Assembly: GCA_963663165.1 (NCBI GenBank)
Contig: OY760175.1
Location: 6,560,001 to 6,624,000, forward strand
DNA: 64,000 nt
Reading direction: 5' to 3'
Source of the DNA: an uncultured Desulfospira sp.
Lineage (GTDB): Bacteria > Desulfobacterota > Desulfobacteria > Desulfobacterales > Desulfobacteraceae
Shown here: piece after piece, positions 10,738 to 30,028 of the stretch
Numbering within the stretch: position 1 is the first letter of the stretch
Layout: each line of letters opens with the position of its first letter
Notes under the pieces: model-generated
Database searches by the model: none
What the model saw: only the letters and a program-made list of their open reading frames with translations
Told to the model about the DNA's origin: nothing
Translations under genes and position numbers: made by a program

Positions 10738-11910
10738 ATGCGTTGGTTTCCACAGGGTCACTTTATGAAAACAATTGTTTTCTTCCTGGGGATCTGCATC
10801 TTTTTTTCACAAAATCCGGTTTCCGGTTCTGCCCATGCTGTGGCGGCAGCCACCAAAGTCAAGCACAAGCCGGTTAAATACTTTGTTCCTGAAAAGCGGA
10901 TAACGCTCACCGCCTATATCAAGGATAAGAAAGGCGTTGAACTGGTCAGGTGTTACTTCAGGGCCAAAGGGGAGGCCAATTTTGTTTTTGTCCCCATGGC
11001 GCAAACCAAAGCCTTCACATACAGTGCCGTTCTTCCGGCGCCAGGCGGGGCCACCCAGGCCATTGAATATGTATTCCTGGCCGTCAATAAAGAGCAGCAG
11101 ATTGTCAAAACCCAGACCTTTGCCATTCCTGAACGGGCGGGGGCGGATACCCCTGACTGGCAGCAGGCCGGCTCTGAGGGCTCTATTGCCGTTAAAACAG
11201 AACTGGATCAGCCGCCAAAGCAGCTGGCGGGTTTTTCCGATTCCATTGTCATTGACCAGGTAGAATCTTCCATGCGGTTTGGTATGGTGGCCGGCGGATT
11301 ATATGCCGTAACGTCTTCGGCCGCCGCTGGAATGGCGGCCGCAGCAGCCGGAACCATAACGGCCACGGCCGGTATTTCCACGGCCGTCATTGTCGGTGTC
11401 GGGGTGGCGGCTGCCGGGGGCGTCGGGGTTGCTGTGAGCAGCAGCGGCGGGGGTGGCAGCGGCAGCAGCGATGCGGGCACCAGTGACACCGGTACCAGCG
11501 ACACCGGCACCAGCGACACCGGCACCAGCGATACCGGCACCAGCGACACCGGCACCAGCGAGGCGGGCAGTTCGGCTACCGGCCCCAATTTAGAGTATGA
11601 AAACAGTGTCCTCACCAACACCGGTGATGAGGGCATTGAGATTGAAACCATTATCGTGACATATGCCGGGTACGGCTATCTTTACCAATTGTTTGACAGT
11701 ACCAGTTATACAGATGATAACGGTATCTTATATACCTGGTCTGTGTCCGGCGATGACCTGGTCTGCACCATGACGGTGAATCAAACCCTGTCACCGGGAG
11801 AATATTATAATTTATACAGTTTGCAAACCCGGGTCCAAGAGTATGCCGGAGCCCTGGCCCCAACCCCGGAAGTGGTCGTGAATACAAGCAGCGGAACCTA
11901 TACATTCTAA
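10738..11910 (+). CDS. Secreted protein B, paralog of 9541-10614 with SDTGT repeat linker
   Basis: GGAGG RBS; shares HKPVKYFVPEKR...IDQVESSMRFGMVAGGLYAVTSSAAAG with protein A. Confidence 0.8.
   Translation: MRWFPQGHFMKTIVFFLGICIFFSQNPVSGSAHAVAAATKVKHKPVKYFVPEKRITLTAYIKDKKGVELVRCYFRAKGEANFVFVPMAQTKAFTYSAVLPAPGGATQAIEYVFLAVNKEQQIVKTQTFAIPERAGADTPDWQQAGSEGSIAVKTELDQPPKQLAGFSDSIVIDQVESSMRFGMVAGGLYAVTSSAAAGMAAAAAGTITATAGISTAVIVGVGVAAAGGVGVAVSSSGGGGSGSSDAGTSDTGTSDTGTSDTGTSDTGTSDTGTSEAGSSATGPNLEYENSVLTNTGDEGIEIETIIVTYAGYGYLYQLFDSTSYTDDNGILYTWSVSGDDLVCTMTVNQTLSPGEYYNLYSLQTRVQEYAGALAPTPEVVVNTSSGTYTF
11467..11571 (+). repeat. 15-bp in-frame tandem repeat (AGCGACACCGGCACC) encoding SDTGT x5 plus 2 degenerate units
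   Basis: Read directly from sequence. Confidence 0.95.
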
Positions 11911-11922: not shown

Positions 11923-13329
11923 ATGAGAATCAGCCGAATTTTAAATAAAAAGACCTTTGGATATATGGGGCTTGTTTTGTTCCTTTTTACGGTTCCGGCC
12001 CTGTCCGGCAGCCTGTCCCCATCCGGAAAATTCATCAGCCTGTCCTTGGATGAGGCCATCAAAACAGCGCTTGAACGAAACAGGGGGCTTTGGGTGGCGG
12101 CCAATTCCGTGGAGAACAGCAGCCTGTCTCTTGAAAACGCCTGGTCAGCCTTTGATTTGAAATACACCCCTTCTGTGCTGTCCGGCGTTAGTAATGACAA
12201 TAAAACGTCAGGTGCCGGAATTTCGTTGAAAAAGAAATTAACATATGGCCCGGTGTTCTCCTTAACCCCCTATGTCAGGCATACCGAATACAGTGATACC
12301 TTAAAGGTATCCATGGGACTGACCGTACCGCTTCTGGGGGGATTCGGCGAAGATGTCAACATGGCCTCGGTTTATTCGTCACAGTTTGGGTTAAGGGACT
12401 CAAAGCGCAGCCAGTACCTGTCAAAGGTCAATACAATCCTGGCAACGGTTTCCTATGCCTTTCGCATAGACGAGCAGAAAAAACTGGTGTCCCTTTATCA
12501 GGAAAGAAAGGCCAGTTTAAGTGTGTATACCCTGGGGACCAAGGTTAAGAAAAAAGCAGGACTGGCCACCCCCATGGATGAATTCCGGACCCAGATATTT
12601 TTAAAAGATGTGGAGGATCAGCTATCCCAGTCCCGGAACAACCTGTCCGGCCTGGAAGAGGATTTCAAGAAACTGCTGGCCATTAACCCGGAAGACAGTT
12701 TCAGTGTTACGCCCCCGGATACCTTGCCGTCCATTGATGTGGCCCTGGATAAGGCCATAGCGACGGCTCTTGAGAACCGGGTTGAAATCAAACATGCCCA
12801 GGATTTTTTATCGGAAAAAATAAGGCAGATGGACCTGGCTGAAAAAAATCTGCTGCCGGATCTGAACCTGGTCTTAAGTTATCAGCGGTACGGTTCCTCA
12901 GATGAGTTTGACGAGATGCTGGCCTTAGATGAAGATTATTACAGCATCCAGCTGACCAGTTCTACCGACTGGTCACGGACCTCTGAAAAGATTGCCTACC
13001 GGAAAAGCCAGATTGCGGTGGAGAATGCCAAAACCGACATCACCCTGACCAAAGACACCATTATTGCCGATGTCAAACAGGCATTCCGGGCAAACCAGAA
13101 AAACCTGGAGCGCATGGAAATTCAAAAAGAACAGATCCACCAGGCCATGCAGAAGTTAAAACTGTCCACCATCAAATACCAGTATGAAATGGCGGATAAC
13201 TTTGATGTGATTGAATCTGAAAGGGAAATACAGCAGGCACAGGCCGATCTGCTGAGCGTTAAAACCGCTTATTGCGTAGGGGTTTACCAGCTTCAGGCAG
13301 CCATGGGGACCTTGCTTGAAAGGAAGTAG
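11923..13329 (+). CDS. TolC-family outer membrane efflux protein
   Basis: Signal peptide, LSLDEAIKTALERN, LLPDLNL and helical repeats; adjacent to MFP and ABC genes. Confidence 0.85.
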   Translation: MRISRILNKKTFGYMGLVLFLFTVPALSGSLSPSGKFISLSLDEAIKTALERNRGLWVAANSVENSSLSLENAWSAFDLKYTPSVLSGVSNDNKTSGAGISLKKKLTYGPVFSLTPYVRHTEYSDTLKVSMGLTVPLLGGFGEDVNMASVYSSQFGLRDSKRSQYLSKVNTILATVSYAFRIDEQKKLVSLYQERKASLSVYTLGTKVKKKAGLATPMDEFRTQIFLKDVEDQLSQSRNNLSGLEEDFKKLLAINPEDSFSVTPPDTLPSIDVALDKAIATALENRVEIKHAQDFLSEKIRQMDLAEKNLLPDLNLVLSYQRYGSSDEFDEMLALDEDYYSIQLTSSTDWSRTSEKIAYRKSQIAVENAKTDITLTKDTIIADVKQAFRANQKNLERMEIQKEQIHQAMQKLKLSTIKYQYEMADNFDVIESEREIQQAQADLLSVKTAYCVGVYQLQAAMGTLLERK

Positions 13330-14812
13330 CGTGGGGGTTAAATCAGTACTTTTCAATTTGTTTGTCTATGGGATAACCGTTCTTTTATTCTTAAGTGCCG
13401 GCTGCGGCGACAGCCAAAAGAATTCAAATGGAGATCAGCCCATTGATGTTGCGATAGTTCAACCAAAATCCTTTGATATCCAGGTGGCCACCATCGGGGT
13501 TCTGGATGCGGCCCGGGCCCATATGCTCTCCTCTGATATAAGGGGGGATTATTCAAAAATAATTTTTATTATTGGTGACGGCACCCACGTTAAAAAAGGG
13601 GATCTTCTGGTTAAAATTGACCAGACCCCCTTTGAAGACCGGGTTGAGGAGCTGACGGCAGAAGTAGCGGCCTTGGAATCCGCCTGCAAGGCCAAAGAAC
13701 AGATGCTGGAATGGGAAAAAAACCAGGTTGAAAAGAATTTAAGCAACGCCCGGTATAACCAGACCCTGGCCAATCTCGAATATAAACGGCTCATCGAAGG
13801 GGACGGCCCCCTGCAGGTCAACCAGTATAAAACCGAAGTGGCCCGGGCCAAAGAAGAGTATGATAAATATGTGTCATACCATCATGAGCTGGAACAGCTC
13901 AAAAATGAAGGGTATTCAAACCCCTCTGAACTGTCTACTGCCCTGAAACGAAAAGACGAGTACAAGGAAAAGTACCAAACCGCCCAAAAGGCTCTGGAAA
14001 GTTATCAGGAACATGTCTACCCGTCCCTGAAACAGGCGGCCATGGCCAAGATGAAAAAAACCGAGGCCGACATCCTCCAGGCCGCCAATGACGGGGTGAT
14101 CAATATTGCCAAAGCCACGGCCACCCTTGAAGAGGCCAAAGGCGCCATGAGCAGCCGGCGGGCCGCATTGAAACAGGCCCGAAATGAACTCAAAAAGGTG
14201 GAACTTCGCGCGCCTTTTGACGGGATTGCCATTTTATATGAAACCTTCAGGGACGGTGAGAAAAGAAAGCCAAGGGTAGGGGACCGGATTATCCGGAACC
14301 AGCCCATCCTTTACCTGCCTGACATTTCGTCCATGATTGTAAAGACGGATATCCGGGAGGTTGACCTGCATAAGATCTCTTTAGAGCAAAAGGCCCAGGT
14401 CCAGGTAGACGCTTATCCCGATGCCCGGCTGGAAGGAAAGGTTGGCTTTATCGGCGCACTGGCCGCCGAGGTCAGGGGAAGCGGAACCGGCGGCAAATTT
14501 TTTCAGTGTACGGTGAATATACTTACCCGGGACCTGCGGCTTCGGCCCGGCATGACCAGCCGGGTGACCATTCTTTCCGGCCAGGTCAAAGATGCCCTTT
14601 GCGTGCCGGTCAGTGCGGTGTTTATAGAAGATGGGGGCTGTTTTTGCTACCGGGTTGAACGCGGCGGCTTTGAACGGATCCGGGTGAAAACCGGCCGTCA
14701 GAACCTGGATTATGTTGAGGTTGTTTCCGGCCTTAAGCCGGACGACAGGGTTGCCTTGACCCGGCCCGATCAGTATTCATATGAAAACGTCGTAAAATCA
14801 GAGGGCTCATAA
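13316..14812 (+). CDS. MacA-like periplasmic adaptor (membrane fusion protein), probable lipoprotein
   Basis: VKKGDLLVKID, long coiled coil, LRAPFDG, LRPGMT, GLKPDDRV; lipobox LSAGC; start may be GTG 13331. Confidence 0.88.
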   Translation: MKGSSVGVKSVLFNLFVYGITVLLFLSAGCGDSQKNSNGDQPIDVAIVQPKSFDIQVATIGVLDAARAHMLSSDIRGDYSKIIFIIGDGTHVKKGDLLVKIDQTPFEDRVEELTAEVAALESACKAKEQMLEWEKNQVEKNLSNARYNQTLANLEYKRLIEGDGPLQVNQYKTEVARAKEEYDKYVSYHHELEQLKNEGYSNPSELSTALKRKDEYKEKYQTAQKALESYQEHVYPSLKQAAMAKMKKTEADILQAANDGVINIAKATATLEEAKGAMSSRRAALKQARNELKKVELRAPFDGIAILYETFRDGEKRKPRVGDRIIRNQPILYLPDISSMIVKTDIREVDLHKISLEQKAQVQVDAYPDARLEGKVGFIGALAAEVRGSGTGGKFFQCTVNILTRDLRLRPGMTSRVTILSGQVKDALCVPVSAVFIEDGGCFCYRVERGGFERIRVKTGRQNLDYVEVVSGLKPDDRVALTRPDQYSYENVVKSEGS

Positions 14813-14813
14813 C

Positions 14814-15482
14814 ATGACCCCCCTGGTGGATATCCAAAATTTATCCAAAACCTATGACATCAAGGGCCGGGCCATTCCCGTGTTGAATGGGATTAACCTT
14901 AAGGTCGATCCCGGCGACTTTATGTCCATCATGGGGCCTTCCGGGTCCGGGAAATCCACTCTGCTTCACCTGATCGGCATGCTGGACCGGCCGGATTCCG
15001 GTCAGTATAAGTTCAAAGGGCGATCGGTTCTCAATATTTCCGATAAGCAGTTGTCCTATTACCGGTCAAAGGCCATCGGGTTCGTATTCCAGACCTTTAA
15101 CCTGATTCCGGGCTTAAGCGTTCTGGAGAATGTAAAACTGCCGTTTTTGTATGCGCCGGGCCACACCGGCCATGCCCTGGAACGATCGGTTCAGGCCATT
15201 GAGCAGGTGGGACTCAAAGATCGTATGGACCATAAACCATCGGAGCTGTCCGGGGGAGAAATGCAGCGGGCCGCCATTGCCAGGGCCATTGCCATGGGGC
15301 CTGAAATTATTCTGGCCGATGAGCCCACCGGCAACCTGGACTCGGGCACCGGCAAGGGCATCTTAAAGTTGCTGTCGGGGTTGAATGAGAAAAAAGCGGC
15401 CATAATCATGATCACCCATGATGCCCATGTGGCATCCCATGCCCGGTCCCATATCACCATTAAAGACGGGAAAATCATTTGA
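14814..15482 (+). CDS. ABC transporter ATP-binding protein (MacB/LolD type)
   Basis: [40 protein letters not shown]. Confidence 0.95.
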
Positions 15483-16750
15483 AAGCGGTGCAAAAGGCAA
15501 AAGGGCTTGTCACCATATCCTTTCAAAGTCTTCTGGACCACAAGCTGCGGTCCGGATTGAGTACCCTCGGGATCATCTGCGGGGTCATGGCGGTGTTGAC
15601 CATGATTTCCATCGGAGAGGGGGCTAAACACGATCTGCTGCTGCAAATTGAACAGCTGGGAACCAAAAATATTTATCTCAAGCCAAGGGTCCTGAGCGAA
15701 GAACAGCAGAACCAGGCCGGTGCCAACCTGTCTGCCGGCCTGACCCCGGCCGATGCCATCCGGATCCGGAACGGATATGCCAGGATTAAAGACATTGCCC
15801 TGCTCAACGAGGTTAAGGCCACGGTGCTGGATACCCAGTCCAGTGCTGCCCCCCAGGTGATTGCGGTGTCGGACAACTATGGGGAAATCCTGGGCCTTGG
15901 CATGGCCCAGGGACGCTTCATATCGGCTGTGGATGGTGACTTAAAACAGCCGGTCTGCGTTTTAGGGGCCTCCCTGGCGGCCCAGCTGGGAAGCCGGGCA
16001 AACATCGGTTCCCGTATCCGGATTGAAGACCAGCTGTTCAAGGTGGTGGGAAAATTAAAAAATTTTGAGAGAAAGGCCAATGCCGGCAAAAAGGCGGCCA
16101 TATCTGTCCGCAATTATAATGACACCATTATGATCCCCTTTGGATTGGGCGCCCTGGTTTCACCTTCAGAGAAAATCATGGCGCCTTTAGCCCGCCATAC
16201 CCCCCGGGTCTCTGAAATCATTGTCCAGGTCCGGGATTCTGATCTGGTGGTACCGGCCGCAAAGCGCATCCAGAGAATTGTTTGCCTGTCCCATAACGGG
16301 GTGCTGGATTTTCAGGTCATTGTCCCCAGGGAGCTGCTGCGCCAGGCCCGGCAGACTCAGAAAACATTTAACCTGATCCTGGGGGCCATCGCCGGGATTT
16401 CTTTGTTGGTGGGCGGTATCGGCATCATGAACATCATGCTGGCCTCGGTTTATGAACGAACCCGGGAAATCGGCATACGGCGGGCGGTGGGGGCCACCAG
16501 AACGGACATTGTCTGGCATTTTTTAACCGAATCTATCCTGCTGACCTCCGTGGGGGGCGTGGCGGGGGTTTTCATGGGAATCATCACTGCGGCGGCGGTG
16601 TCAAGGCTCGGGCAATGGCAGACCCTGATCACGGCCTGGGCCATCCTTTTGCCGGTGCTGATGGCGGTGCTGGTGGGGGTCTTTTTTGGCATTTACCCGG
16701 CGGTCCAGGCATCCAAAATGGATCCCATCAAGGCACTCAGGCATGAGTGA
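15479..16750 (+). CDS. ABC transporter permease (MacB-PCD/FtsX type)
   Basis: [62 protein letters not shown]. Confidence 0.94.
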
Positions 16751-16759
16751 GGAAACCTG

Positions 16760-17431
16760 CTAGTCGGCTTTTATTTCAGTCGCCTGATTGAGCAGGTTCC
16801 CGAACTCCACTTCAATCTTGCCTGAAGGCAGTGTTTTCATCATTTCCTGAACCAGCCATTCCACCCGGTCCGTGCGGGAGGCCGATGCATGGCTCAGGCT
16901 GTTTAACAGGATGTTAATGGGGTCAACAGCCCATTGGCGGTGGGCCGTCCGCCATTGCTCGCCCTTCCACAACACAATCCCCGTCTCACAATGAATCAGT
17001 TTTAAAGAGCAGGATACCACAATGGCGTCATACCCATCCTGCTGAAGGTGGCCGGATTGGTCTATCTGGCCTAGCAGCACCGCCCGGGCATTTAACATTT
17101 CGCCCAAGCGTTTCAGGCTGATGCCCTGGAGCTGTCCCGGGGTCTGGATGCCCAGCTGCCCCATGGCCTCGCTGACCTTTTCAACGGAAACCCGGCGGTA
17201 TCCCTTTGATTGAAGCCGCTCATAAACCGCATGGTAAAGGGTGCTTTCAAGGCCCAGTTCCAGGGAAAAATTGTCCATGGGCAACACGGCAATGACATCC
17301 GGGCGGTATTGTTCAAATTGAGGGTGAACTTCCCAGAACTCCTGATCCTGTTTTTCCGCTGCCTTCCCCTGATCTGGGCCTGCCAGAAAAAACACCGTGA
17401 CAGCCAAGAGGATGGGAATGATGTTTTTCAT
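16760..17431 (-). CDS. DUF799/GNA1162-like exported protein (TolB-N/CsgG-like fold)
   Basis: Signal peptide without a lipobox Cys; IAVLPMDN, LQSKGY, LGEMLNARAVLLG and LIHCETGIVLW pattern. Confidence 0.65.
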   Translation of the reverse strand: MKNIIPILLAVTVFFLAGPDQGKAAEKQDQEFWEVHPQFEQYRPDVIAVLPMDNFSLELGLESTLYHAVYERLQSKGYRRVSVEKVSEAMGQLGIQTPGQLQGISLKRLGEMLNARAVLLGQIDQSGHLQQDGYDAIVVSCSLKLIHCETGIVLWKGEQWRTAHRQWAVDPINILLNSLSHASASRTDRVEWLVQEMMKTLPSGKIEVEFGNLLNQATEIKAD

Positions 17432-17449
17432 AATTTTTTCTTTTTTTTT

Positions 17450-17723
17450 TATAAGAAAGTCTCACTAAGGTCCTGAGAAGACTTTCAATATTTGTTGTGG
17501 GCGGTGCTTGGTTGGATAACCAAGACGGCCCGTGGCCGTTTATATGAAAGTCTCACTAACAAGCTGAAAAGACTTTCATTTTTCGTTGTGGGCGGTGCTT
17601 GGTTGGATAACCAAGGCGGCCCGTGGCCGTTATAAGAAAGTCTCCCTAACGTCCTGAGAAGACTTTCATTTTTTGTTGTGGACGGGTTCTTGGCTGGATA
17701 ATCCAAGACGGCCCGTGGCCGTT
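17450..17723. repeat. Tandem array of three ~90-bp double-hairpin units
   Basis: Units start ~17450, 17541, 17631; each has gaaagtct..agactttc and cttggtt-ggat-aaccaag (variant in unit 3) hairpins. Confidence 0.95.
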
Positions 17724-18417
17724 ATTGGGCTCGACTGTATGAAGAAATCAGTTCAAACAGGGCCTTCTCAATGGCCGCATCCAGGGCATCATCACCGGCA
17801 CTGCTGTCCCAAGACCCCACCTGTCTGGCTGAATAGGTCTGGCGGATGGTGTGTTCGCCTCTGCCTGCGGCCACATACTCCCCGGTCCCGGCGTTTTGCA
17901 GGAGCAGGTCCACCCGGACCGAGGTATCAATGGTTTTTCCCTTTGATACGGCACTGGCCTGGGCATGGGTGGAAACGTTAAACCGGGTGATGGTCCCGGA
18001 GATAAAATGGTCGCACAAAAGGATTCTCTGGGCTTTGGCCATGTTATCCGGGGATTTGACAATATCGGCATGGCTTAAGGTTTCCCAGTCAAACAACCGC
18101 TTCATTTTTTCCCACTCCACCACCCGGAAATACTGGGTCCGCAGCAGCTGGGCCGATAACAGCTGGGCCGATGTATCCCATAACCGGTCAGCCGAATAGG
18201 TGCTCTTGTTCTCAAATCCGGCCACGGCGATGAGATTTTTCTTTTCCGGCGGGGCCGGGGCCTTACCCCAGTCCACCATGGGGTCCTGATCAATCACCGG
18301 CGCCGCCTGCTGTGCCGGGCCGGCCTGCTCAGACGCCACACATCCGGACATGATCAGCATGAATACCAGGCCCAGAATGATGTAACGCACTGAAGGGGTA
18401 GAGTCGGTATGCTTCAT
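17722..18417 (-). CDS. CsgG/HfaB-family lipoprotein
   Basis: Lipobox IMSGC; IAVAGFENK, LLRTQYFRVVE, FISGTITRF and VRVDLLL..TGE pattern. Confidence 0.75.
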   Translation of the reverse strand: MKHTDSTPSVRYIILGLVFMLIMSGCVASEQAGPAQQAAPVIDQDPMVDWGKAPAPPEKKNLIAVAGFENKSTYSADRLWDTSAQLLSAQLLRTQYFRVVEWEKMKRLFDWETLSHADIVKSPDNMAKAQRILLCDHFISGTITRFNVSTHAQASAVSKGKTIDTSVRVDLLLQNAGTGEYVAAGRGEHTIRQTYSARQVGSWDSSAGDDALDAAIEKALFELISSYSRAQ

Positions 18418-18487
18418 TTGAAATCCTTTATCAATATGGGTTCAACGTTTAAAAAATATGGATACAAGACGTTAACAACCGATCAAG

Positions 18488-18547
18488 CCCTAAGCCCCAT
18501 ATCCCAAGTCCCAAGTCCCAAGTCCCAAATCCCAAATCCCAAATCCC
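18488..18547 (-). repeat. Heptamer array (TTGGGAY) directly after the caspase stop codon; G-quadruplex-type pattern
   Basis: + strand reads tcccaag x3 then tcccaaa x3, plus degenerate units. Confidence 0.92.
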
Positions 18548-18548
18548 G

Positions 18549-20627
18549 CTATTTAACCATAACCAGGGGCAGTTCCGTCCCGTCCACTTTAAAATAGGGA
18601 TGCTGCTGGCCGTTGGTCAGCCTCGGGACCTGTCGGGATACAAACTGGAACATTTCATTTAAGGAGACATAGTTGTCTTTATCGTAATCCGCTTTGCCCA
18701 TCATGGCTTGAACCAGGGTATAGGTGAAAACCCCATGGCCTGTAAAATTCGGGTAAAGTTCAAATTTATCCGATTCCATGGACAGCTCACCGGCCTTTGA
18801 GGCAGAAATAATGTAAAGCCCCTGGGCCGCCCGGATGGCCTCGGACAGATCTTCACTTTCTCCGGCACCGCGCATGCCCACCTGGAGCGCACCCGAATGG
18901 CAGCTGTCAATGGCCACAATGATTTTTTCAACATTCTGGGACAGGATCTTAATGGATTCTTCAAAATCGGACATTCTAAGCCCCCGTGACAAAAGGTTGT
19001 CGCTGTCGGCGTCTGAAGGAAGGAAATAGTAGGAGCCCGACTGCCGGTGCTTGATCCCGTGTCCTGCAATGGACAGGAACACAATATCATCCGGCGCCGC
19101 CTTTCCCAGATGTCCGGATATGTTTGAGATAATGCTTTCCCGGGTAACCTCTTTGTTGACTATGGTTTTAAAGTGGACTTCGGCAAATGAAGACCCGGCC
19201 TGGTCAGTGAAGAATTTTTTGAGCAGCAGGGCATCCTGGTCCGCGTATTTTAAATCCAGGGTGGTGCTGTTGTATTTGGATACACCAATGGAAAGCCCCC
19301 ATAAAATGGGTTTCCGGCCGGACGATAAAACCGCCGGTTCATCGGTAATCTTACCCCTTGAGAACTGCAAATATTTGGTGGTCTGGTTGCCGTAAATATC
19401 TTCGGCTTTTATGGAAATTTTTCCCTGGTCAGGAATGTTGGTTTCATGCTCGAACTGCCCGTCCTTTGTCAGGGCAACGGTTTCATCATTGATCTTAAGG
19501 TAGGATATGGGGTTGTCGTCTTCAACCCGGCCCTTGATCAGGGAGGTTTTAATTTCAGGTTCAAGCATGACCTTAAATCCCCTGGTGGTCTCAGGTGATG
19601 TCAGGACCACCAGAGGCGGGGCCGTGTCTTTTTCAAGGTCAACGGAAAATACTTTTTTAATGATCTTGTTGGACTGGTTCCGGGCCATGACCAGAAACTG
19701 GTTTTCCCCGTCTTTGAGTTCCACGGAATGGGAAAAATGCCCTTTGCTGTCATAGGCTACCATCTGGCCGTTGATTCTGATTTCGGCGATTCCGTCGGGG
19801 TCAATGGCCATGCCTTCGATTTTAAGCGGTTTTTCATAACATACCGGTTTAAACCCCCTGGCCACCGGGGGATTTAAAATGACGATCTCGGGCTCGCCGG
19901 CGGCCTTTGGGGCTGCCTGGGCAACAACAGGACTGCCGGAAGACGCCGAAGGGGTTGGTGCCGAAGGTTTCGGGGGCGTCGTGGCCGTTGCCGGCCGGCT
20001 GGGTTTAGGGGTAAATGAGGATGCATACTGGTTGAGTTTTTTTTGTTCAGCGCTGCTTAACTGTGGGGGAACGGTTTCTTTGATCCGGTTCGTGATGTCG
20101 GCGGCCAGCTTGTCATAGGTGGATTTCTGGGCGGCTTCGCCGGACTGGTTGACACTGATATAGGACGGGCTGTCCATGTCAAGGGTTTTGCCCGTGGCGG
20201 TATGGATCACCTTGTAGGCAAATACGGTCACCGCCTTATTGAGCTTTACCCCGGCCGCCTCTTCGGAATTGATCCGGGTTTTGGCCTTGCCGTTGAGAAT
20301 ATAAGCGGCATTGAGAACGGCGGCGGCTTTTCTTAATGCCGGCACATCCCCTTTGAGTGCCCCTGATATGACCTTTGTGTTTAAACGAGGATGGGAGCCC
20401 AAATCATCGGAAGTTTTAACTTCCATGCCCATCTTGACCAGTTCCCGCCCGATTTTCATTTCACTTTCCTTGAGAAAGTCCGTATTCAGGGTCTGGCTCT
20501 GGTCTTCGACAATATTGATCAGTACATTGGCCGGCCGGTCTGCCCGGGCAGTCCCGGGGACCAGAACGGCCAGGGCCAGTAAACAAAGGCAAAGAATTTT
20601 ATGAACGGTTGCCGCATGGTGCCTCAT
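18549..20627 (-). CDS. Exported caspase-like (peptidase C14) protein with CsgG/TolB-N-like and two Ig-like domains
   Basis: AGGAGG RBS before ATG 20627; signal peptide ending TARA; SIGVSKY..LKYADQDA, AGHG (His), IDSCHSG (Cys), HGVFT and QHP motifs. Confidence 0.9.
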   Translation of the reverse strand: MRHHAATVHKILCLCLLALAVLVPGTARADRPANVLINIVEDQSQTLNTDFLKESEMKIGRELVKMGMEVKTSDDLGSHPRLNTKVISGALKGDVPALRKAAAVLNAAYILNGKAKTRINSEEAAGVKLNKAVTVFAYKVIHTATGKTLDMDSPSYISVNQSGEAAQKSTYDKLAADITNRIKETVPPQLSSAEQKKLNQYASSFTPKPSRPATATTPPKPSAPTPSASSGSPVVAQAAPKAAGEPEIVILNPPVARGFKPVCYEKPLKIEGMAIDPDGIAEIRINGQMVAYDSKGHFSHSVELKDGENQFLVMARNQSNKIIKKVFSVDLEKDTAPPLVVLTSPETTRGFKVMLEPEIKTSLIKGRVEDDNPISYLKINDETVALTKDGQFEHETNIPDQGKISIKAEDIYGNQTTKYLQFSRGKITDEPAVLSSGRKPILWGLSIGVSKYNSTTLDLKYADQDALLLKKFFTDQAGSSFAEVHFKTIVNKEVTRESIISNISGHLGKAAPDDIVFLSIAGHGIKHRQSGSYYFLPSDADSDNLLSRGLRMSDFEESIKILSQNVEKIIVAIDSCHSGALQVGMRGAGESEDLSEAIRAAQGLYIISASKAGELSMESDKFELYPNFTGHGVFTYTLVQAMMGKADYDKDNYVSLNEMFQFVSRQVPRLTNGQQHPYFKVDGTELPLVMVK

Positions 20628-21026
20628 TGAGTCCTCCTGATATTTAAAAATTTGTTCTGGAAATATAATATAATCTGCCCGGATAATACAGGGGAATGCA
20701 CAATTTTTCATTGGCAGGACAATCCCGAAGGGAAAAACAACTTATTCTGTAATGAAATTGGGGGGGGGGATAATGGCCAATAAAATTGAATGGAGACCGG
20801 GAACGGGAGACGGGAGAGTGGAATTCGAAACCCTTAAGGATGCGTGATCCGTTCTTCGGTCTGCCTTCCTCCGGGTTCCTATTTTTAATGCTGTCAGGCC
20901 AGGCCTTGCACTTTTTACTAGAATATATTAGGTTTTCATTGCTGATGGGGTTAAATGTATCAAGGAATAAAACAAGCTTAAAATATTCAGTTACGAACCG
21001 TTCCATGGAGATGACAGGGATTAAAA

Positions 21027-21827
21027 ATGAGTCAATCCGGTAGCATGAGCCTTCAAGTTGAAACCCGCCTGATCTCTGCAAGCGGCCTTACCGACCCGGG
21101 AAAGCAACGGCAGAACAACGAAGATGCCATTTTCATAGACGATCAGGGCAAATTTTTATTGTTGGCCGACGGCATGGGGGGGCAGCGAAACGGGGCCCTG
21201 GCAAGTTCCCTGGTCATCAATGCGGTAAACCGGCAGTTCATGCCCGAGATTGTGGATCAGCAATTAACGGATATTACCGAGTCCGAAGGGGTCCCCACGG
21301 AAATCAGCGGCCTGTGTTCCGTAATTGAAAGTGCTGTGTTTGAGGCCAATCAGATGCTGTACCAGGCCAATTGCAAGGAAAGCGAATCTAAATACGATTT
21401 TATGGGAACCACCCTGGCCGGTCTTTACCTGGCCCCGTCCGGATACATCATTACCTTTCATATCGGAGACAGCCGGATTTACAGGCTTCGCAACGGCGAT
21501 TTAACCCGGATGTCCCGGGACCATTCCCTGTATCAGGAATGGCTGGACAACGGCCAGATCGGCAAACAGCCCAAAAAGAACATCCTTACCCGGGCCATTG
21601 GTTTTGGCGATTATGTCCAGCCCGATACCCATTATAGCAAATATGCCAGAAATGATGTCTACCTGCTTTGCAGCGACGGTTTGACCAACATGCTGCCCGA
21701 AAGAAGAATTGAAGCCGTTCTATCCCAGCGGTCCAATGCAGCCGATTCGGCCGAGGTGCTGGTAAAAGAGGCCAATGATGCGGGGGGGGCGGATAATGTC
21801 AGTGTGGTTTTATGCCGGATAATTTGA
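21027..21827 (+). CDS. PP2C-type Ser/Thr phosphatase (PppA/Stp1-like)
   Basis: NNED, LADGMGG, MGTT, HIGDSR, LCSDGL, GGADN. Confidence 0.95.
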   Translation: MSQSGSMSLQVETRLISASGLTDPGKQRQNNEDAIFIDDQGKFLLLADGMGGQRNGALASSLVINAVNRQFMPEIVDQQLTDITESEGVPTEISGLCSVIESAVFEANQMLYQANCKESESKYDFMGTTLAGLYLAPSGYIITFHIGDSRIYRLRNGDLTRMSRDHSLYQEWLDNGQIGKQPKKNILTRAIGFGDYVQPDTHYSKYARNDVYLLCSDGLTNMLPERRIEAVLSQRSNAADSAEVLVKEANDAGGADNVSVVLCRII

Positions 21828-21849
21828 ACGATTCAGGAACCATATTCCT

Positions 21850-23883
21850 ATGAGCCGGATCAACGAGTCTTCCCAGGAATCCCTTCTGGGGAAATATAAC
21901 ATTGTATCAAAGCTTGGCCAGGGCGCCATGGGCATGGTCTACAAAGGGTTTGACCCGTCCATCGAACGGTACGTGGCCTTAAAAACCGTCAGTTCTCACA
22001 TTCTTAATATGGGAGACTCAGCCGTAACGGCATCCCTTAAACGGTTCAAACAGGAAGCCAAAATTGCCGGCCGTTTGAACCATCCCCACATCGTGTCGGT
22101 TTATGAGTACGGCGAAGATCAGCAGACCATTTTCATTGCCATGGAGTATGTCGAGGGCAAAGAACTCAAGCAGATTTTCACCGAACAGCCGGGGCCATGG
22201 CCGGTGTCAAAAAGTGTCGGCCTGATGATACAGCTGCTTGAAGCCCTTAAACATGCTCACGGCAACGGCGTCATACACCGGGATATCAAACCTGGGAACA
22301 TCATTGTAAGGCCCAATGGCGACATTAAAGTTACGGATTTCGGGATTGCCCGGATTGAGTCTTCAGAGTTGACCCAGATGGGAACCCTGCTGGGCACACC
22401 CAGCTATATGGCACCGGAAATGATCAATGAAAAGCAGGTGGACGCCAGGTCGGATCTTTTTTCGGCCGGGGTGGTGTTCTACCAGTGCCTGACCGGGGGA
22501 AAACCCTTTGACGGGGCGGCCCATCAGGTCATGAATAAAATTTTGACCACCGCCCATACGCCGCCGTCAGCCATTGTCCCGGACCTGCCGCCGGAGCTGG
22601 ACCGGATTGTGGATAAGGCCCTGGCCAAAGACCCGGCCCAGCGGTACCCCAGTGCCGATGCCATGCTCATAGACCTTAAAGGGCTTTTGGCCGGACCGGA
22701 GCCCTCCTATACAGGGATTTTTGCGCCCCCCCAAAGTCCCCCAGCGGCTGAAGGAACACCGCCTGACGCCAGCCTGAATTCACCACCGCCACAGGGGATA
22801 ACCGATCCATCCCCCCCCGGAACCCAGGGCCAGCCGGAAAAAAGGCGGTCTTCGGCCATGCCCTTGATTCTCTCCCTGGTTTTTCTGGGGCTGGTTATCA
22901 TTGCGGCGGTATGGGTGTATTATGACCGGGTGATGTCCGTGGAGTCACCGGGGACGGCAACGGCCCCGAAGACCGCACAGGAAACCGTAAAGCCCGAAAA
23001 ACCAACGTTTTCCATGCCGGAGCCGCTGGCCTTGAGTCCCCGCAAAGAAAAAATCAAGGTGCTCGAAGAAACCCTTAAATCATCAGCCGGCAAGGTGACC
23101 ATGTCCATGGCCCTCGACATGCTCAGGCTTAATATCGCCTTCAAGGATAACACCGGGGGGGCTGAGGCTGACCTGCTGGATTCCCTGGCCGGCCGGATTC
23201 TGTCTTCTGACCGGGTAATCCGGGTGTTTCAGGGGGCTGCGGACCTGATCTGCACCCTGGATACGGATAGCAGCGGGCCTGTGTTAACCCTTAAAAACAG
23301 ATTCCTTGTAAACGCCCCGGACGCCGTTTTCCCCGCCCGTGACTTACTTGAGGGTCCCAAAGAAAACCAGGTTAACCTGGCATATATGATAGATAAGCTG
23401 TATGCCTTCAACGCCTTTGACCTGCTGCAAAGCGTCAAACCACCGGCCGGCAATGCCGCCTATATTGAATTTTCCGGAACCCATGACAACACCTTCCGTA
23501 TTGGACAGACCTCCGACATCTGCATCCATCCGGATCAGGAAGGCGATCTGGTGCTGTTCAATATAAATTCAATGGACATCACCATGCTGTTTCCCCATTT
23601 TAAGGATACAAAAACCCATGTCCTGCAGGGGCAGTCCAAATGTTCGGGAAAAGTGGAAATCTGTCCCCCTGCCGGAACGGAAATGATAGCGTCATTCCTG
23701 TTAAAGGACCGCAGCCTCATGGACAGATTCGGATACACCCTTTCTGAAAAAACCGGGTTCTGCACCTGGGCTTACGAACAGGGTAGGGCCGGCGAATTTT
23801 GCGAGAATCTGATGTTTCAACTGCTCAATGCCCTGGATCAGGGCTGGTCCGTTGACACCCGGCTGGTGCAGATCAGAAACTGA
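21850..23883 (+). CDS. Membrane Hanks-type Ser/Thr kinase (PpkA-like) with C-terminal DUF4384-like periplasmic domain
   Basis: GQGAMG, VALK, HRDIKPGN, DFG, GTPSYMAPE; Pro-rich linker; one TM; FRIGQ...LVLFNI..ITMLFP pattern (domain call tentative). Confidence 0.92.
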   Translation: MSRINESSQESLLGKYNIVSKLGQGAMGMVYKGFDPSIERYVALKTVSSHILNMGDSAVTASLKRFKQEAKIAGRLNHPHIVSVYEYGEDQQTIFIAMEYVEGKELKQIFTEQPGPWPVSKSVGLMIQLLEALKHAHGNGVIHRDIKPGNIIVRPNGDIKVTDFGIARIESSELTQMGTLLGTPSYMAPEMINEKQVDARSDLFSAGVVFYQCLTGGKPFDGAAHQVMNKILTTAHTPPSAIVPDLPPELDRIVDKALAKDPAQRYPSADAMLIDLKGLLAGPEPSYTGIFAPPQSPPAAEGTPPDASLNSPPPQGITDPSPPGTQGQPEKRRSSAMPLILSLVFLGLVIIAAVWVYYDRVMSVESPGTATAPKTAQETVKPEKPTFSMPEPLALSPRKEKIKVLEETLKSSAGKVTMSMALDMLRLNIAFKDNTGGAEADLLDSLAGRILSSDRVIRVFQGAADLICTLDTDSSGPVLTLKNRFLVNAPDAVFPARDLLEGPKENQVNLAYMIDKLYAFNAFDLLQSVKPPAGNAAYIEFSGTHDNTFRIGQTSDICIHPDQEGDLVLFNINSMDITMLFPHFKDTKTHVLQGQSKCSGKVEICPPAGTEMIASFLLKDRSLMDRFGYTLSEKTGFCTWAYEQGRAGEFCENLMFQLLNALDQGWSVDTRLVQIRN

Positions 23884-24423: not shown

Positions 24424-24960
24424 CTAACCAATCCCCATGTCATCTACCACTAGTCCGTCAGGTGCTTCCTGCCGGAATTTGAGAAGGGTTTCGGGGTCAT
24501 CCCCCTCCTGGATGAAACAGCTCACCGGCCCGAAGACCGCATCCAGTTCTTGTCCGTTGCATGTGGGCAGAAAGGTTTTAAATACCCGGGGGTCATAAAA
24601 TCTGAAAAAAAGTCGGGTGCCCTCGGGATCTTTGACCGTGACAAGGGAGCGGAAATGTTTTCTCATTTCTATGATTTTTTCTTTGGCAACGGCAAAGATC
24701 CCCCAGTGGTTGCCCCATCCCTCCTCTATCACCCATTGGGTAAAGGGGCTGCCTTTTTCAAGCAGGACAAGGTAAGGGGCGACTTCTTCCACATCATGGG
24801 GCAACTGTCCCTGGTAAAGGCAAAAACACATGGGATCATGCTCATCAAGGCTTAAGAGCAGATTGTTAATGCTGGCCCCGTCAAGTATGGCATATACCCG
24901 TGTTCCCGGGATAGAAAACAGTTGCTGATGAATTTTTTCTAAGCGCTGGTTATCTGTCAT
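24424..24960 (-). CDS. DUF4123 T6SS effector adaptor/chaperone
   Basis: YAILDGA, APYLV.L, WGIF, HFRSL and FFRFYDPRV motifs; directly downstream of vgrG. Confidence 0.92.
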   Translation of the reverse strand: MTDNQRLEKIHQQLFSIPGTRVYAILDGASINNLLLSLDEHDPMCFCLYQGQLPHDVEEVAPYLVLLEKGSPFTQWVIEEGWGNHWGIFAVAKEKIIEMRKHFRSLVTVKDPEGTRLFFRFYDPRVFKTFLPTCNGQELDAVFGPVSCFIQEGDDPETLLKFRQEAPDGLVVDDMGIG

Positions 24961-24978
24961 CGCTGTTTAGTCTCTTTT

Positions 24979-27228
24979 TTATTGGCTTTTTGCGGCCTCT
25001 TTTTGTTCATTTTCCCGTCTGGCCTTTTCACACTCTTCACAAAAGGGCGTGCCGTCCTGGGCGGCCTGGCGCAAAACAGCGGCCGCAGGGGTTTGCTGCT
25101 GAGACGTATCCGCCGGACTTGAAGCTGCCGCCGCCTCAGCCGGTTCACCGGGTTGGGCATTATCGGCCGGTTCCGGGTCTTCTGGCAGGGCCGGGCTTTC
25201 CGCTGATGAGGGGGATGCCGCTGACGCATTTACAGGGGATCCTGATCCGCTGTTGATATACACCATGGTGCCGGTGATATATACACCGTCCTGGGCGATG
25301 ACAACGGATGATCCGCCGCATTTGATTTCGATGCCGGAACTGGCATCAAGTTTGATAGAAGCCGCCTTTAACGCCCCTGTCCCCGAAGCCTCAATCAGGC
25401 AGTCCGAACCGGTGGTCTCCCGCAGCTTCCCCCCGATGCTCAGGTGATAATCCGATCCCACCGTTGCCAGAAGGTCGCCGCCTACCGTGAGGTTGTCACT
25501 GCCCGTAACCTCCTGCTTGCGGTCGGCGTCCACGGTCAGGTTGTCATTGCTTTCAACTTTTTCGATCCGGTCCCCGACCACCCGGAAGTGCTTGTCGCCG
25601 TGCAGCAGTTTTTTCTGGGACCCGCCGTTCTCCTCACCAATGGTCTGGTGCCGGTTGCCCAGGATGTTTTCAAAGGAATCGTTTTTGACATGTACGTCCA
25701 TGTTTTTTTCGGCATGGAAAAACAGCTGCTCATTTCCTTTTTTGTCTTCAAACCGGATTTCATTAAACCCGCTGCCCCCTTTGGAGGAGTCTGTTTTAAA
25801 TGTGGACTTGGTTTTCTCTGCGGGCAGGGCATAGGGGGGCATTGATTTGGCGTTGTAAACCCGGCCGGTAATGATGGGCTGGTCCGGATCACCTTCTAAG
25901 AATTCAACAATCACTTCCTGGCCGATTCTCGGAAGCACCATGGCCCCCCATTTTTTTCCGGCCCAGCCCTGGGACACCCGGATCCAGCAGGAACTGTTTT
26001 CATCCCGCTGTCCTTCCCGGTCCCAGTGGAACTGAACTTTAACCCGGCCGTATTCATCGGTGTATATTTCGTCTCCCCCGGGGCCGCTGACAATGGCGGT
26101 CTGGGGACCTTCCACCAAAGGCTTTGGGGTTTTCGTGGCCGGTCTGTAGGGGGTTTCATAATCAATGGCATTAAACATGACCGTGTAACCGGGCCCGCCC
26201 ACGGATACCCCGGATTGAAATCCGGCAGTGGTGGTCAGATGATAGGCCGCCGATATCACCAGGTACCGTTTGTTAAACCCGTCAATGGGGTGATCGGTCA
26301 GATCAAAATAATGTCCGGCGGCCAGCCCCCTGGCATCGGCTTCACCGGATACGGTTTCAAATCCGGTATAAAAGGCTTCCATCCGTATGCGGGAATAGGC
26401 CTCTCCATCGCCGGATTCCGTATAATGGCCGGGATAATCATAGACCTCGTAAAATGCATGGTCGTGTTCCCGGTCAATGGCCTGGGTGGCGGTCAAGTCT
26501 TTATCCGGTGCTTTAAAGTCAAAATCCCTGTGGGTGACGCTGCCCGGGTGAAGCTGTTTTTCCATAAAGATAGACCGGATGCATTCACCGGCAATGGATG
26601 CCCCGGAGGCATCCTCAGGGCTGAAAACAATACTCTCAAAATCCTCATAAGCTTCAAGGGAGGCATTGGAATCCGCCAGAACCATAATATGCCGGTCTTC
26701 CTCATGGTTGAAATAATAAAAAATGCCTTCATGCTCCATCAGGCGGTTGACAAAATTATGGTCAGACTCCCGGTATTGCACGCAGTATTCCCATTCCCGG
26801 TAATCCCCGGTGAGTTTGAACTCGTAATCGTTGAATTCCAGGTCGTCAAAGATTTCTTTGATGATGTCCGGTACGGTTTTGTTTTGAAATATCCGGCAGT
26901 CCCGGGTATGGTTAAGGAACCAGAGCCAGGGATAAGCCGTCGCCGTATAGTAAGGCAGCCCGTCCCTGATGCCGTGGCTCCGGCAATGGCCCACAAATCC
27001 GTTAAAATAACGGAATTCGTCTGCTTTGGGAAGGGTCAGTTTGACCGATACCTGCTTGCCGAGAATGGTGTTGAAATCCAGGTTGATGTCTTTGCAGCGC
27101 ATCTCCAGATGAATCTGGAACATCCCGGATATGCTTTCATCAATGGTGGCTCCGGTTAAAAGCAGTTTATCTTTCCCCAGGGGGGTGATCAGTTCGATCT
27201 GCCTGTTTTCTTGGGTGACGTCACTCAT
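24979..27228 (-). CDS. vgrG: T6SS spike protein VgrG with short C-terminal CxxC extension
   Basis: YCVQYRESD, YDYPG, GPQTA.V.G, DEYGRVKVQFHWDR, PRIGQEVIVEFLEGDPDQP, NEIRFED. Confidence 0.97.
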   Translation of the reverse strand: MSDVTQENRQIELITPLGKDKLLLTGATIDESISGMFQIHLEMRCKDINLDFNTILGKQVSVKLTLPKADEFRYFNGFVGHCRSHGIRDGLPYYTATAYPWLWFLNHTRDCRIFQNKTVPDIIKEIFDDLEFNDYEFKLTGDYREWEYCVQYRESDHNFVNRLMEHEGIFYYFNHEEDRHIMVLADSNASLEAYEDFESIVFSPEDASGASIAGECIRSIFMEKQLHPGSVTHRDFDFKAPDKDLTATQAIDREHDHAFYEVYDYPGHYTESGDGEAYSRIRMEAFYTGFETVSGEADARGLAAGHYFDLTDHPIDGFNKRYLVISAAYHLTTTAGFQSGVSVGGPGYTVMFNAIDYETPYRPATKTPKPLVEGPQTAIVSGPGGDEIYTDEYGRVKVQFHWDREGQRDENSSCWIRVSQGWAGKKWGAMVLPRIGQEVIVEFLEGDPDQPIITGRVYNAKSMPPYALPAEKTKSTFKTDSSKGGSGFNEIRFEDKKGNEQLFFHAEKNMDVHVKNDSFENILGNRHQTIGEENGGSQKKLLHGDKHFRVVGDRIEKVESNDNLTVDADRKQEVTGSDNLTVGGDLLATVGSDYHLSIGGKLRETTGSDCLIEASGTGALKAASIKLDASSGIEIKCGGSSVVIAQDGVYITGTMVYINSGSGSPVNASAASPSSAESPALPEDPEPADNAQPGEPAEAAAASSPADTSQQQTPAAAVLRQAAQDGTPFCEECEKARRENEQKEAAKSQ

Positions 27229-27255
27229 TAGGGTCGCCTTTTATTAAAATCGTGA

Positions 27256-29970: not shown

Positions 29971-29979
29971 TTCTGTCTC

Positions 29980-30028
29980 CGTTGGCTTTTAGCTTTTAGC
30001 CGTTAGCTTTTAGCTTTTAGCTGTTAAT
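29980..30028. repeat. Heptamer array (TTTTAGC family) between tssG and tssH
   Basis: cgttggc ttttagc ttttagc cgttagc ttttagc ttttagc tgttaat. Confidence 0.88.

Follow-up and report, generated by a model that had tools for sequence, protein, structure and literature searches.

In the H1 type VI secretion system (T6SS) of Pseudomonas aeruginosa, the lipoprotein TagQ and TagR, a member of the FGE-sulfatase superfamily, are reported to form a complex upon membrane damage, and this complex has been modelled as dimerising the kinase PpkA; the role of the ABC proteins TagS and TagT in Pseudomonas is described as unknown (PMC13713981; see also PMC7817224 for the H1-T6SS threonine phosphorylation pathway). 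Other phosphorylation inputs to T6SSs include RtkS in Serratia (PMC6082577) and TssW in Acidovorax (PMC12607579), both lineage-specific accessory proteins that feed the PpkA-Fha switch and that, by the abstracts of these papers, involve no protease, CsgG-fold proteins or tripartite pump. Here we examine a 64,000-nt stretch of DNA from an uncultured Desulfospira sp. (contig OY760175.1, positions 6,560,001-6,624,000; hereafter the window, whose positions serve as coordinates below), in which genes for an exported caspase, CsgG-fold proteins, a MacB-type pump and a membrane Ser/Thr kinase adjoin an H1-like T6SS cluster (24424..48180, minus strand). An initial annotation of this DNA had read the caspase, CsgG, DUF799 and ABC genes as one functional unit tied to threonine-phosphorylation signalling, serving as a T6SS accessory and as a non-homologous replacement for TagQRST. 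We find that the segment at 9541-23883 is very probably one copy of a conserved, uncharacterised and autonomous envelope module of Desulfobacterales; the module is not a T6SS accessory as such, and its T6SS link is lineage-specific and unproven.

Parts of the gene set have relatives in other described systems. A 'curli-like' three-gene cluster encoding a CsgG homologue, a lipoprotein and a GNA1162 homologue is reported from Acinetobacter baumannii UPAB1 (10.1101/2021.05.19.444899) and from Neisseria meningitidis (NMAA_0892-0894; PMC5282872), and deletion of the Acinetobacter CsgG homologue is reported to abolish poly-N-acetylglucosamine (PNAG), chaperone-usher pathway (CUP) pili and biofilm (10.1101/2021.05.19.444899). 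DUF4384 is fused to 23 cyanobacterial orthocaspases, in which FGE-sulfatase is also a recurrent accessory domain (PMC8283722, Table 1), and the 'Proteo1' Ser/Thr kinases are reported to carry DUF4384 or FGE-sulfatase (10.1101/2025.01.12.632604). A literature search outside the subscription journals returned no paper describing the present gene set or a function for a caspase/DUF4384-kinase pairing.

The window has several features of the H1 pathway: next to a T6SS with a similar order of genes it encodes a membrane Hanks kinase, a PP2C phosphatase and FHA protein(s), and close to the kinase lie genes for an outer-membrane lipoprotein, a protein of the periplasm and a MacB/FtsX-type ABC pair. 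Unlike that pathway, the window has a full TolC pump, candidate cargo, a caspase and CsgG-fold proteins, every sensor protein family differs save the ABC pair, and the module mostly occurs without a T6SS. TagR-type FGE-sulfatase genes (PF03781) are absent from the window, in agreement with the initial annotation, and the genome's only two matches to this family lie at 0.68 and 2.10 Mb. The description of the set as non-homologous is qualified by the ABC permease and ATPase, which sit within a pump with TolC and a periplasmic adaptor (membrane fusion protein, MFP) and fall, at the level of Pfam families, in the same MacB/FtsX-type ABC families as TagS and TagT; because of this shared pair, the set is not wholly non-homologous to TagQRST.

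A recurrent module of sulfate reducers

The module is a defined, recurrent system of roughly 12 genes in sulfate reducers. Genes in the window were called from a listing of open reading frames (ORFs) with Pfam and NCBIfam scans, which recovered every gene named in the initial annotation at the position given there. On the plus strand, genes for two secreted paralogues, sec1 (9541..10614) and sec2 (10738..11910), are followed by those for a TolC-family outer-membrane channel (11923..13329), the MFP (13316..14812), an ABC ATPase of the LolD/MacB type (14814..15482) and a MacB-type permease (15479..16750). This TolC-MFP-ABC-permease run converges, 9 bp apart, on a minus-strand trio encoding a GNA1162/DUF799-like exported protein (16760..17431), a CsgG-like lipoprotein of 231 aa (17722..18417) and the exported caspase (ORF 18549..20711). 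A plus-strand pair, encoding a PP2C Ser/Thr phosphatase (21027..21827) and a membrane Ser/Thr kinase of 677 aa (21850..23883), is divergent from the caspase, and housekeeping genes lie on both flanks of the whole module and T6SS region. The gene set first proposed thus stands as far as it went, but it had overlooked sec1 and sec2, which are among the most constant partners of the module.

The comparison covered 400 other genomes of the same order (401 counting the window genome; G numbers), with L numbers for individual loci compared with the window, and the flanks of matches were compared by tblastn with all window proteins and by Pfam. Orthologues of the CsgG-like gene occur at E<1e-30 in 12 of the 400 genomes, a caspase search in 150 genomes found full-length orthologues in G067, G063 and G036, and a metagenome profile search built on nine aligned caspase orthologues yielded 24 loci. 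A contig search with the single caspase protein returned only L001, a Desulfospira metagenome-assembled genome (MAG), which shows the same arrangement at about 90% protein identity, the DUF4123/VgrG edge included, with a single sec copy versus two in the window. Leaving out the window and L001, and with L039 merged into L003, whose record length it shares, and L034 into the near-identical L033, a caspase orthologue stands beside a CsgG-like gene in 19 distinct loci. Members of at least ten families of the order carry the module, as do the 24 metagenome loci; its arrangement varies, and some copies have domain fusions. The earlier reading of the caspase, CsgG, DUF799 and ABC genes as one functional unit is supported by this recurrence of the same genes together across genomes.

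The arrangements differ in orientation. In G394, from the window's own family, a sec-TolC-MFP-ABC-permease run converges on DUF799-like, CsgG-like and caspase genes as in the window, and upstream of the caspase lie a kinase with DUF4384, three FHA genes, T2SSF and T2SSE. G067 and G271 carry the module genes in one co-directional run, an order repeated in L033/L034, L035, L036 and L042, and G275 and L043 share the order kinase-sec-Lcl_C-caspase-CsgG-DUF799-PP2C-FHA_SLT-TolC-MFP-ABC-permease. Most loci of sufficient length include the pump, and sec homologues adjoin the module in many loci. The CsgG-like/DUF799-like pair is found in every sufficiently long locus except L003, L036 and L042, where DUF799 was not found; the DUF799-like orthologues are 41-70% identical and stand beside the CsgG-like gene. 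L024 and L025 hold sec, CsgG-like and DUF799-like genes together, with neither a caspase orthologue nor a kinase.

Of the 19 loci, 13 have at least 1 kb of sequence upstream of the caspase, and in all of these the gene directly upstream encodes a membrane Ser/Thr kinase; L023 has a different gene order, and no kinase was found within its 5.4 kb. FHA genes accompany the module in nine distinct loci, either as one FHA and two FHA-TPR genes or as FHA-SLT, with an FHA-GGDEF protein in place of the usual FHA set in G036, and PP2C lies within the module in G275, L043 and L038. These associations bear out the proposed tie to threonine-phosphorylation signalling. The usual neighbour, seen in six loci, is a pair of ATPase and platform (E/F) genes like those of type II secretion systems (T2SSs) together with three FHA genes, and this upstream run looks like an undescribed, FHA-controlled machine of the T2SS or type IV pilus (T4P) kind. 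In G394 (L019:4651-19954), as well as L002, L020/L021, L033 and L035, it comprises a T2SS-type ATPase (MshEN), a T2SS-F platform, a thioredoxin-like protein and three FHA proteins, two of them with TPR; G394 additionally has a second T2SSE/T2SSF-TPR pair and ORFs of 1014, 366 and 295 aa that lack a Pfam match.

By tblastn with the window's T6SS core proteins, T6SS core genes were found in none of the 19 other distinct module loci; this query set was sensitive enough, because the same queries recovered T6SS genes at 21-75% identity in G134, G275 (contig C1), G074, G200, G103 and ten other clusters. The TssC family (PF05943) occurs in 109 of the 401 genomes and in 4 of the 12 other module genomes (G271, G275, G042 and G266), always on a different contig from the module, which is no enrichment. 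No TssC match was found in the other eight, whose completeness is 97% (G394), 99% (G067), 100% (G205), 91% (G032), 89% (G096), 84% (G063), 79% (G363) and 53% (G223). Only in the window genome and in the 90%-identical Desulfospira MAG does the module lie beside a T6SS. Neighbourhood and co-occurrence comparisons therefore place homologues of the set mostly in genomes that lack a T6SS, the outcome that the initial annotation had itself named as refuting its proposal. The proposal that the set is a T6SS accessory replacing TagQRST was not borne out, with T6SS core genes in 0/19 loci and no TssC in 8/12 genomes.

Caspase, CsgG-fold partners, secreted proteins and pump

The caspase consists of a signal peptide, an N-domain of the CsgG/GNA1162 fold, a Pro-rich linker, two Ig-like domains (Glucodextran_B Ig, E 2.5e-12) and a C14 domain (Peptidase_C14, PF00656, E 1.3e-18, 67.9 bits). 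The orthologue alignment favours a start at 20627 (Met29 of the ORF), giving the signal peptide and a protein of 692 aa (18549..20627, minus strand); the export signal claimed initially stands, while the start shifts to this position. The His-Cys dyad (H523 and C576, in the motifs AGHG and D[ST]CH[SA]G) is invariant in all nine aligned sequences and, judged by these residues, the caspase keeps its catalytic dyad. Like the orthocaspases, the protein has a C14 fold with a His-Cys dyad and is associated with DUF4384, an accessory domain common to caspases and kinases. It differs from them in that the caspase and the DUF4384-like domain reside on separate, adjacent proteins, and in that the caspase is exported and predicted to be docked by its CsgG-fold domain.

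The caspase N-domain has no Pfam match at E<=5. Its AlphaFold model (pLDDT 88.7) retrieved in Foldseek HpaA (1.2e-8), GNA1162 (4hrv, 2.3e-6) and CsgG (4uv2, 7.2e-6), as well as FlgT, PelC and LptE, over a range of E 1e-8 to 2e-4 and TM 0.4-0.55, and in this model the domain shares a predicted fold class with its CsgG-like and GNA1162-like neighbours. Several members of the fold class assemble into rings beneath the outer membrane. In G032 and G266 (loci L026 and L027), proteins of 585 and 561 aa combine a CsgG-like domain with a caspase domain in one chain; these loci have no kinase, and a stand-alone DUF4384 protein lies beside the fusion. The caspase, CsgG-like and DUF799-like proteins look like the parts of one predicted complex. 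A complex prediction for the mature caspase (aa 30-692) with the kinase ectodomain scored 0.00 against a mark of 0.32 in a run without controls, and speaks neither for nor against binding.

The CsgG-like protein matches PF03783 (E 4.2e-9, 36.5 bits versus a cut-off of 20.8) and has a lipobox, MSGC, when read by eye. The DUF799-like protein (PF05643, E 1.8e-12, 47.6 bits versus a cut-off of 25.9), encoded by the sole such gene in the window's genome, has a leader that, also read by eye, has no Cys and hence no lipobox. Between the two genes lies a gap of 290 bp that holds only three tandem 91-bp dispersed repeats (17448..17723; Tandem Repeats Finder, TRF: period 91, 3.0 copies, 86% matches), and in L001 the genes are 17 bp apart. 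The repeat family contains a palindrome, and BLAST places no fewer than 20 other copies elsewhere in the genome; relative to L001, the repeats are an insertion, which may split or modulate the operon. As in the widespread curli-like cluster, a CsgG-family lipoprotein adjoins a GNA1162/DUF799-family protein. The window differs from that cluster in having no middle lipoprotein gene in the repeat-filled gap and no lipobox Cys in its DUF799-like protein, and in its additional genes, which encode a kinase, a pump, polymorphic secreted proteins and an exported caspase that carries the fold a third time. Among the scanned window ORFs there were no Pfam families of the curli partners CsgE, CsgF or CsgA/B.

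The two sec proteins, 60% identical to each other in a 15-sequence alignment, have no Pfam match at E<=5. Sec1 comprises a signal peptide, an Ig-like N-domain, a Gly/Ala-rich hydrophobic linker, a poly-Gly run and a variable C-domain. Across the 15 sequences the N-domain is conserved and ends in an invariant E-S-x-x-R-F-G motif (E178, S179, R182, F183 and G184), and the C-terminus is hypervariable, with C-domains that differ completely between orthologues. The AF2 model of sec1 (pLDDT 71 overall, about 90 in the Ig-like N-domain) gave generic Ig-like matches in Foldseek, and for sec1 the ESM Atlas returned just unnamed clusters below 0.9. The layout suggests a constant handle that carries a variable payload. 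The sec proteins are candidate cargo or substrate, with the MacB-type pump as the candidate exporter, and the invariant Arg of the N-domain is a candidate site of cleavage by the caspase.

Sec-like proteins also occur elsewhere. A third paralogue (49% identity in the N-domain; L091:13908-15260, genome 5,658,907-5,660,259) is isolated: its neighbours are transposase, ParA-like and ABC genes, and none of the module genes was found around it. Two CsgG-like proteins of G074 (468 and 462 aa; L063:10912-18912) share the layout of the sec proteins: a folded N-domain is followed by hydrophobic sequence rich in Gly and Ala and then by a poly-Gly/Ser/Asp run, and the C-domain is small.

The pump is encoded by four consecutive or overlapping plus-strand genes (11923-16750). 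The TolC-family channel matches OEP (PF02321, E 3.7e-24), with TIGR01844 under its cut-off; the MFP, which has a lipobox-like LSAGC, matches HlyD_D23 and HlyD_3 (HlyD-type, 6.9e-9), RND_mfp (TIGR01730, 4e-38) and a MacA-like NCBIfam model (1.2e-22). The ATPase matches ABC_tran (6.9e-33), its top NCBIfam models, LolD, DarD and the MacB N-terminus, each scoring under cut-off, and the permease matches MacB_PCD (PF12704, 8e-29) and FtsX (PF02687, 1.4e-20). Tripartite exporters of the type VII ABC class, MacAB-TolC among them, pump substrates out of the periplasm. The window pump shares with MacAB-TolC its OEP, MFP, ABC ATPase and MacB_PCD/FtsX permease, and differs from it in that ATPase and permease are on separate genes and in that all NCBIfam equivalog scores, those for MacA and MacB included, are far below their cut-offs.

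The kinase and the neighbouring T6SS

The window kinase has a Hanks domain (Pkinase, E 5.7e-55), one transmembrane (TM) segment (about aa 336-360) and a periplasmic domain of 314 aa, and its partner phosphatase matches PF13672 (6.7e-15) and, under cut-off, the Stp1-type model NF033484 (2.4e-58). The ectodomain is rare: a word-limited search returned seven clusters among 5.8 billion, and a metagenome search with the ectodomain alignment gave no match. The closest kinase orthologues (P0003-P0007) are 46-52% identical to it in this domain. Among the 400 genomes, its profile finds three further kinases, in G275, G065 and G134. That of G275 heads the module cluster listed above, in which all genes lie on one strand. 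That of G065 adjoins a DUF4384-OmpA protein and an Ig-caspase, and that of G134 lies with PP2C, FHA-cyclase and FHA-SLT genes, about 9 kb from a 451-aa caspase and about 18 kb from a T6SS VgrG. Counting the window and G275, a caspase gene is found no more than 10 kb from a kinase of this ectodomain type in all four genomes, and a T6SS no more than 20 kb away in two of the four; G275 is left undecided on the second point, since its contig with the module (C57) begins 51 nt ahead of the kinase and its T6SS contig (C1) begins inside the VgrG-linked DUF2169 region. Joining these two contigs proved impossible from sequence.

Several comparisons bear on a relation of this ectodomain to DUF4384. Aligned by hhalign with the DUF4384 region of eight caspase-linked kinases, it gave an E of 1.2e-4 at a probability of 55%, after weak results from earlier pairwise BLASTP and small-profile hhalign comparisons (E 0.011, 0.0084 and 0.0012), and the L043 kinase, which has the same ectodomain type, reaches 22.9 bits with Pfam DUF4384 (PF14326; E 9.4e-5) versus a cut-off of 27. 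The core of the window kinase ectodomain is tentatively read as a divergent DUF4384-like domain, unlike that of PpkA, and a sensor role for it is plausible because DUF4384 and FGE-sulfatase recur as accessory domains of kinases and orthocaspases. The position of the PP2C/kinase pair, at the DUF4123/VgrG end of the T6SS cluster, also differs from H1. PpkA has a vWA-like ectodomain, and in H1 ppkA-pppA sits next to tagF.

The catalytic domain points elsewhere. In a maximum-likelihood tree of 28 kinase domains, the clade of the window kinase joins the T6SS-linked kinase of G074 and kinases of VipA/B-fusion cassettes with moderate support (91/88), and the kinases of G275, L043 and G134 sit among the caspase-linked DUF4384 kinases. 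That kinases with this ectodomain form one clade is rejected by an approximately unbiased (AU) test (delta lnL 48, p 8e-5), run on a group named after the tree had been seen and with the long-branch rows G065 and own_4586513 removed, although long branches remain. On these sequence comparisons, the simplest reading is that the window kinase is chimeric, with a kinase domain from the T6SS clade and an ectodomain from the caspase module.

The T6SS is complete, and its gene order by the Pfam assignments, which resembles H1 as initially annotated, is fha, a 167-aa ORF, tssK-L-M, a tagF-like gene (weak TagF), tssA-B-C, hcp, tagJ, tssE-F-G, clpV, vgrG and DUF4123. The two FHA ORFs lie at 45801-47117 and 47038-48180 (TagH model TIGR03354, 1.6e-5, under cut-off). 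About 540 bp (23884-24423) separate the 3' end of the kinase gene from the DUF4123/VgrG end of the cluster, and an effector gene is absent after the DUF4123 adaptor because only this interval remains; at the same place, L001 has 5.6 kb of small ORFs and repeats (L001:1009-6677). Elsewhere in the window genome there are a second, divergent sheath-family match in a 512-aa frame and an Hcp paralogue of 47% identity (C1:3,304,865-3,305,737 and 3,228,511-3,228,990). FHA matches number only four in the genome: the two of the T6SS cluster, and two small ones that lie together at 5.70 Mb. No homologue of the sister genomes' set of three FHA and T2SS-like genes was found in it.

By TssC identity, the nearest relatives of this T6SS are those of G074 (75%), G103 (73%) and G200 (73%), with others at 65% or less. 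At the tssA end of the G074 cluster, a double-FHA gene is followed by divergent genes for PP2C, a trypsin-like protein whose N-terminal hydrophobic segment is read as making it exported or membrane-anchored, and a kinase-TM-PEGA protein; the cassette continues with a TPR-AhpC-CsgG/FlgT_C protein, a CsgG/LpoB lipoprotein and two more CsgG-like genes, and an FHA-SLT gene adjoins tagF. By its layout, this cassette is analogous to that of the window, built with a different protease family. The G200 cluster has FHA-SLT, but the surrounding sequence, about 25 kb, showed neither a kinase nor PP2C; for G103, the short contig allows no judgement. In ten next-tier T6SS clusters (TssC 48-52% identical), neither PP2C nor FHA was found, and one has a kinase 4 kb from tssK.

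Two kinds of FHA-associated gene recur across these settings. The FHA-TM-SLT (lytic transglycosylase) protein (L062:7571-9073, L065:643-2091, L015:9889-11376, L012:6045-7523 and L043:14268-15755) is T6SS-linked in G074 and G200, accompanies the caspase/pump module in G275 and L043, and lies with the kinase/PP2C set in G134. Similarly, an ORF of about 520-560 aa that joins VipA- and VipB-like sheath domains in one protein recurrently adjoins a double-FHA protein, with no full T6SS around it (L043:402-2831, L012:16276-19144, L056-L058 and L060). Its neighbours include PP2C in L056, L057, L058, L060 and L012 and a kinase in L057, L060, L012 and L043, and in G227 (L059) the fusion abuts VgrG.

Competing readings and their consequences

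That an exported protease and CsgG-fold partners feed a threonine-phosphorylation switch has good comparative support, and we give the following mechanism, drawn from synteny, fusions and folds, somewhat better than even chances. The three CsgG-fold parts would assemble under the outer membrane, with the caspase held on its Pro-rich/Ig tether. The DUF4384-like ectodomain of the kinase would sense the assembly state or a cleavage product, and the kinase would relay the signal by threonine phosphorylation to FHA proteins, a step that PP2C would reverse, and the MacB-type pump would expel Sec-delivered polymorphic proteins or fragments from the periplasm via TolC. The FHA-controlled machine would vary by lineage, usually being the T2SS/T4P-like ATPase-platform pair; here and in the Desulfospira MAG, the output would be the adjacent H1-like T6SS via its two Fha proteins. 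The T6SS is the most likely output in the window lineage because two of the genome's four FHA matches lie in the T6SS cluster, the set of three FHA genes is absent and the G074 cassette is analogous; the apparently chimeric kinase also favours a T6SS link. More tentatively, the module may be a portable periplasmic protease sensor that gates different envelope nanomachines through FHA proteins, its exported caspase (in G074, the trypsin-like protease) being docked to CsgG-fold lipoproteins and read out by the kinase ectodomain. In that case the chimeric kinase would here wire the caspase/MacB-pump module to the H1-like T6SS in a TagQRST-like job, and in sister lineages the module would drive a T2SS/T4P-like ATPase; we regard this full version as possible, with real doubt.

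A number of points weigh against this reading. Every mechanistic step rests on synteny, fusions and folds, and the sample, one bacterial order and one metagenome collection, includes relatives that do not count as independent cases. At 36.5 bits the CsgG-like protein matches its family weakly, and a role as a pore is only putative; the window ectodomain has no Pfam match at E<=5, its DUF4384 assignment resting on the profile-profile match of 55% probability. Moreover, the window kinase is divergent from the caspase, whereas elsewhere the two are co-directional and adjacent, and its kinase domain is only about 35% identical to those of caspase-linked kinases. It could be a T6SS kinase merely abutting the module, because its kinase domain groups with T6SS/VipAB-linked kinases. 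A general T6SS role of the module is impossible because 8 of the 12 other module genomes have no PF05943 match to TssC.

A narrower alternative is a dedicated T6SS envelope sensor that replaces TagQRST, in which periplasmic proteolysis would trigger PpkA-like phosphorylation of Fha and fire the T6SS. The set adjoins an H1-like T6SS with Fha, TagF-like and TagJ proteins and no TagR-type gene, an arrangement kept in the Desulfospira MAG, and the related T6SS of G074 (TssC 75%) has at its edge a double-FHA gene, PP2C, an exported trypsin-like protease, a kinase-TM-PEGA protein and four CsgG-like genes. The split affinities of the window kinase, whose catalytic domain groups with T6SS/VipAB-linked kinases and whose ectodomain type goes with the module kinases (AU p 8e-5, the group having been named after tree inspection), would suit such a sensor, as would the interleaving in G275 and L043 of module genes with genes that are T6SS-linked elsewhere (FHA-SLT, double-FHA and the VipA/VipB fusion). 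Yet the absence of T6SS core genes from the 19 loci and of PF05943 from 8 of the 12 genomes, the lack of TssC enrichment and the usual T2SS-like E/F neighbours (6 loci) all argue against it, and neither a kinase nor PP2C was found in the roughly 25 kb around the T6SS of G200, which is of the same subtype (the contig of G103 is too short to show them); we consider a dedicated T6SS sensor unlikely.

It is also conceivable, if doubtful, that the module, in the manner of the curli-like cluster of Acinetobacter, serves purely in the export or surface assembly of the sec proteins or of a matrix polymer, with the caspase maturing the product, the kinase tuning the process and the T6SS a chance neighbour whose Fha is kinase-independent or separately controlled. 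Loci L024 and L025, which dispense with caspase orthologue and kinase, fit this view, as do the presence of the pump in most loci long enough, the hypervariability of sec C-domains as in cargo or surface proteins, the place of the module, which has housekeeping genes on one side, the T6SS on the other and dispersed repeats where they meet, and the reported need for the Acinetobacter CsgG homologue in PNAG, CUP pili and biofilm formation (10.1101/2021.05.19.444899). Such a role leaves unexplained, however, why a kinase with a periplasmic domain always lies directly upstream of the caspase and why FHA genes and an ATP-driven machine accompany the set in unrelated arrangements; moreover, the FHA partners available in this genome are limited to the T6SS pair and the small pair at 5.70 Mb. 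A chance juxtaposition of unrelated operons, to which the divergent and convergent orientations and the repeat insertion in the window might point, is very improbable given that the same genes stand together in at least ten families and 24 metagenome loci, in varied arrangements and with fusions.

If the module signals in the way proposed here, with the kinase reading out the caspase/CsgG-fold assembly, its protease would be the first exported bacterial caspase in trans-envelope signalling. The same reading would provide a function for the pair of CsgG homologue and GNA1162 lipoprotein, for the DUF4384 domain that kinases and caspases share and for a sensor-linked MacB-type pump, all of them widespread, and the presence of such a pump beside the sensor would parallel the unexplained TagS/TagT of Pseudomonas. 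Even taken conservatively, the module yields clear predictions for the protease substrate, the pump cargo and the kinase input. If true, the reading would mean that the threonine-phosphorylation switches of secretion machines accept interchangeable sensor cassettes.

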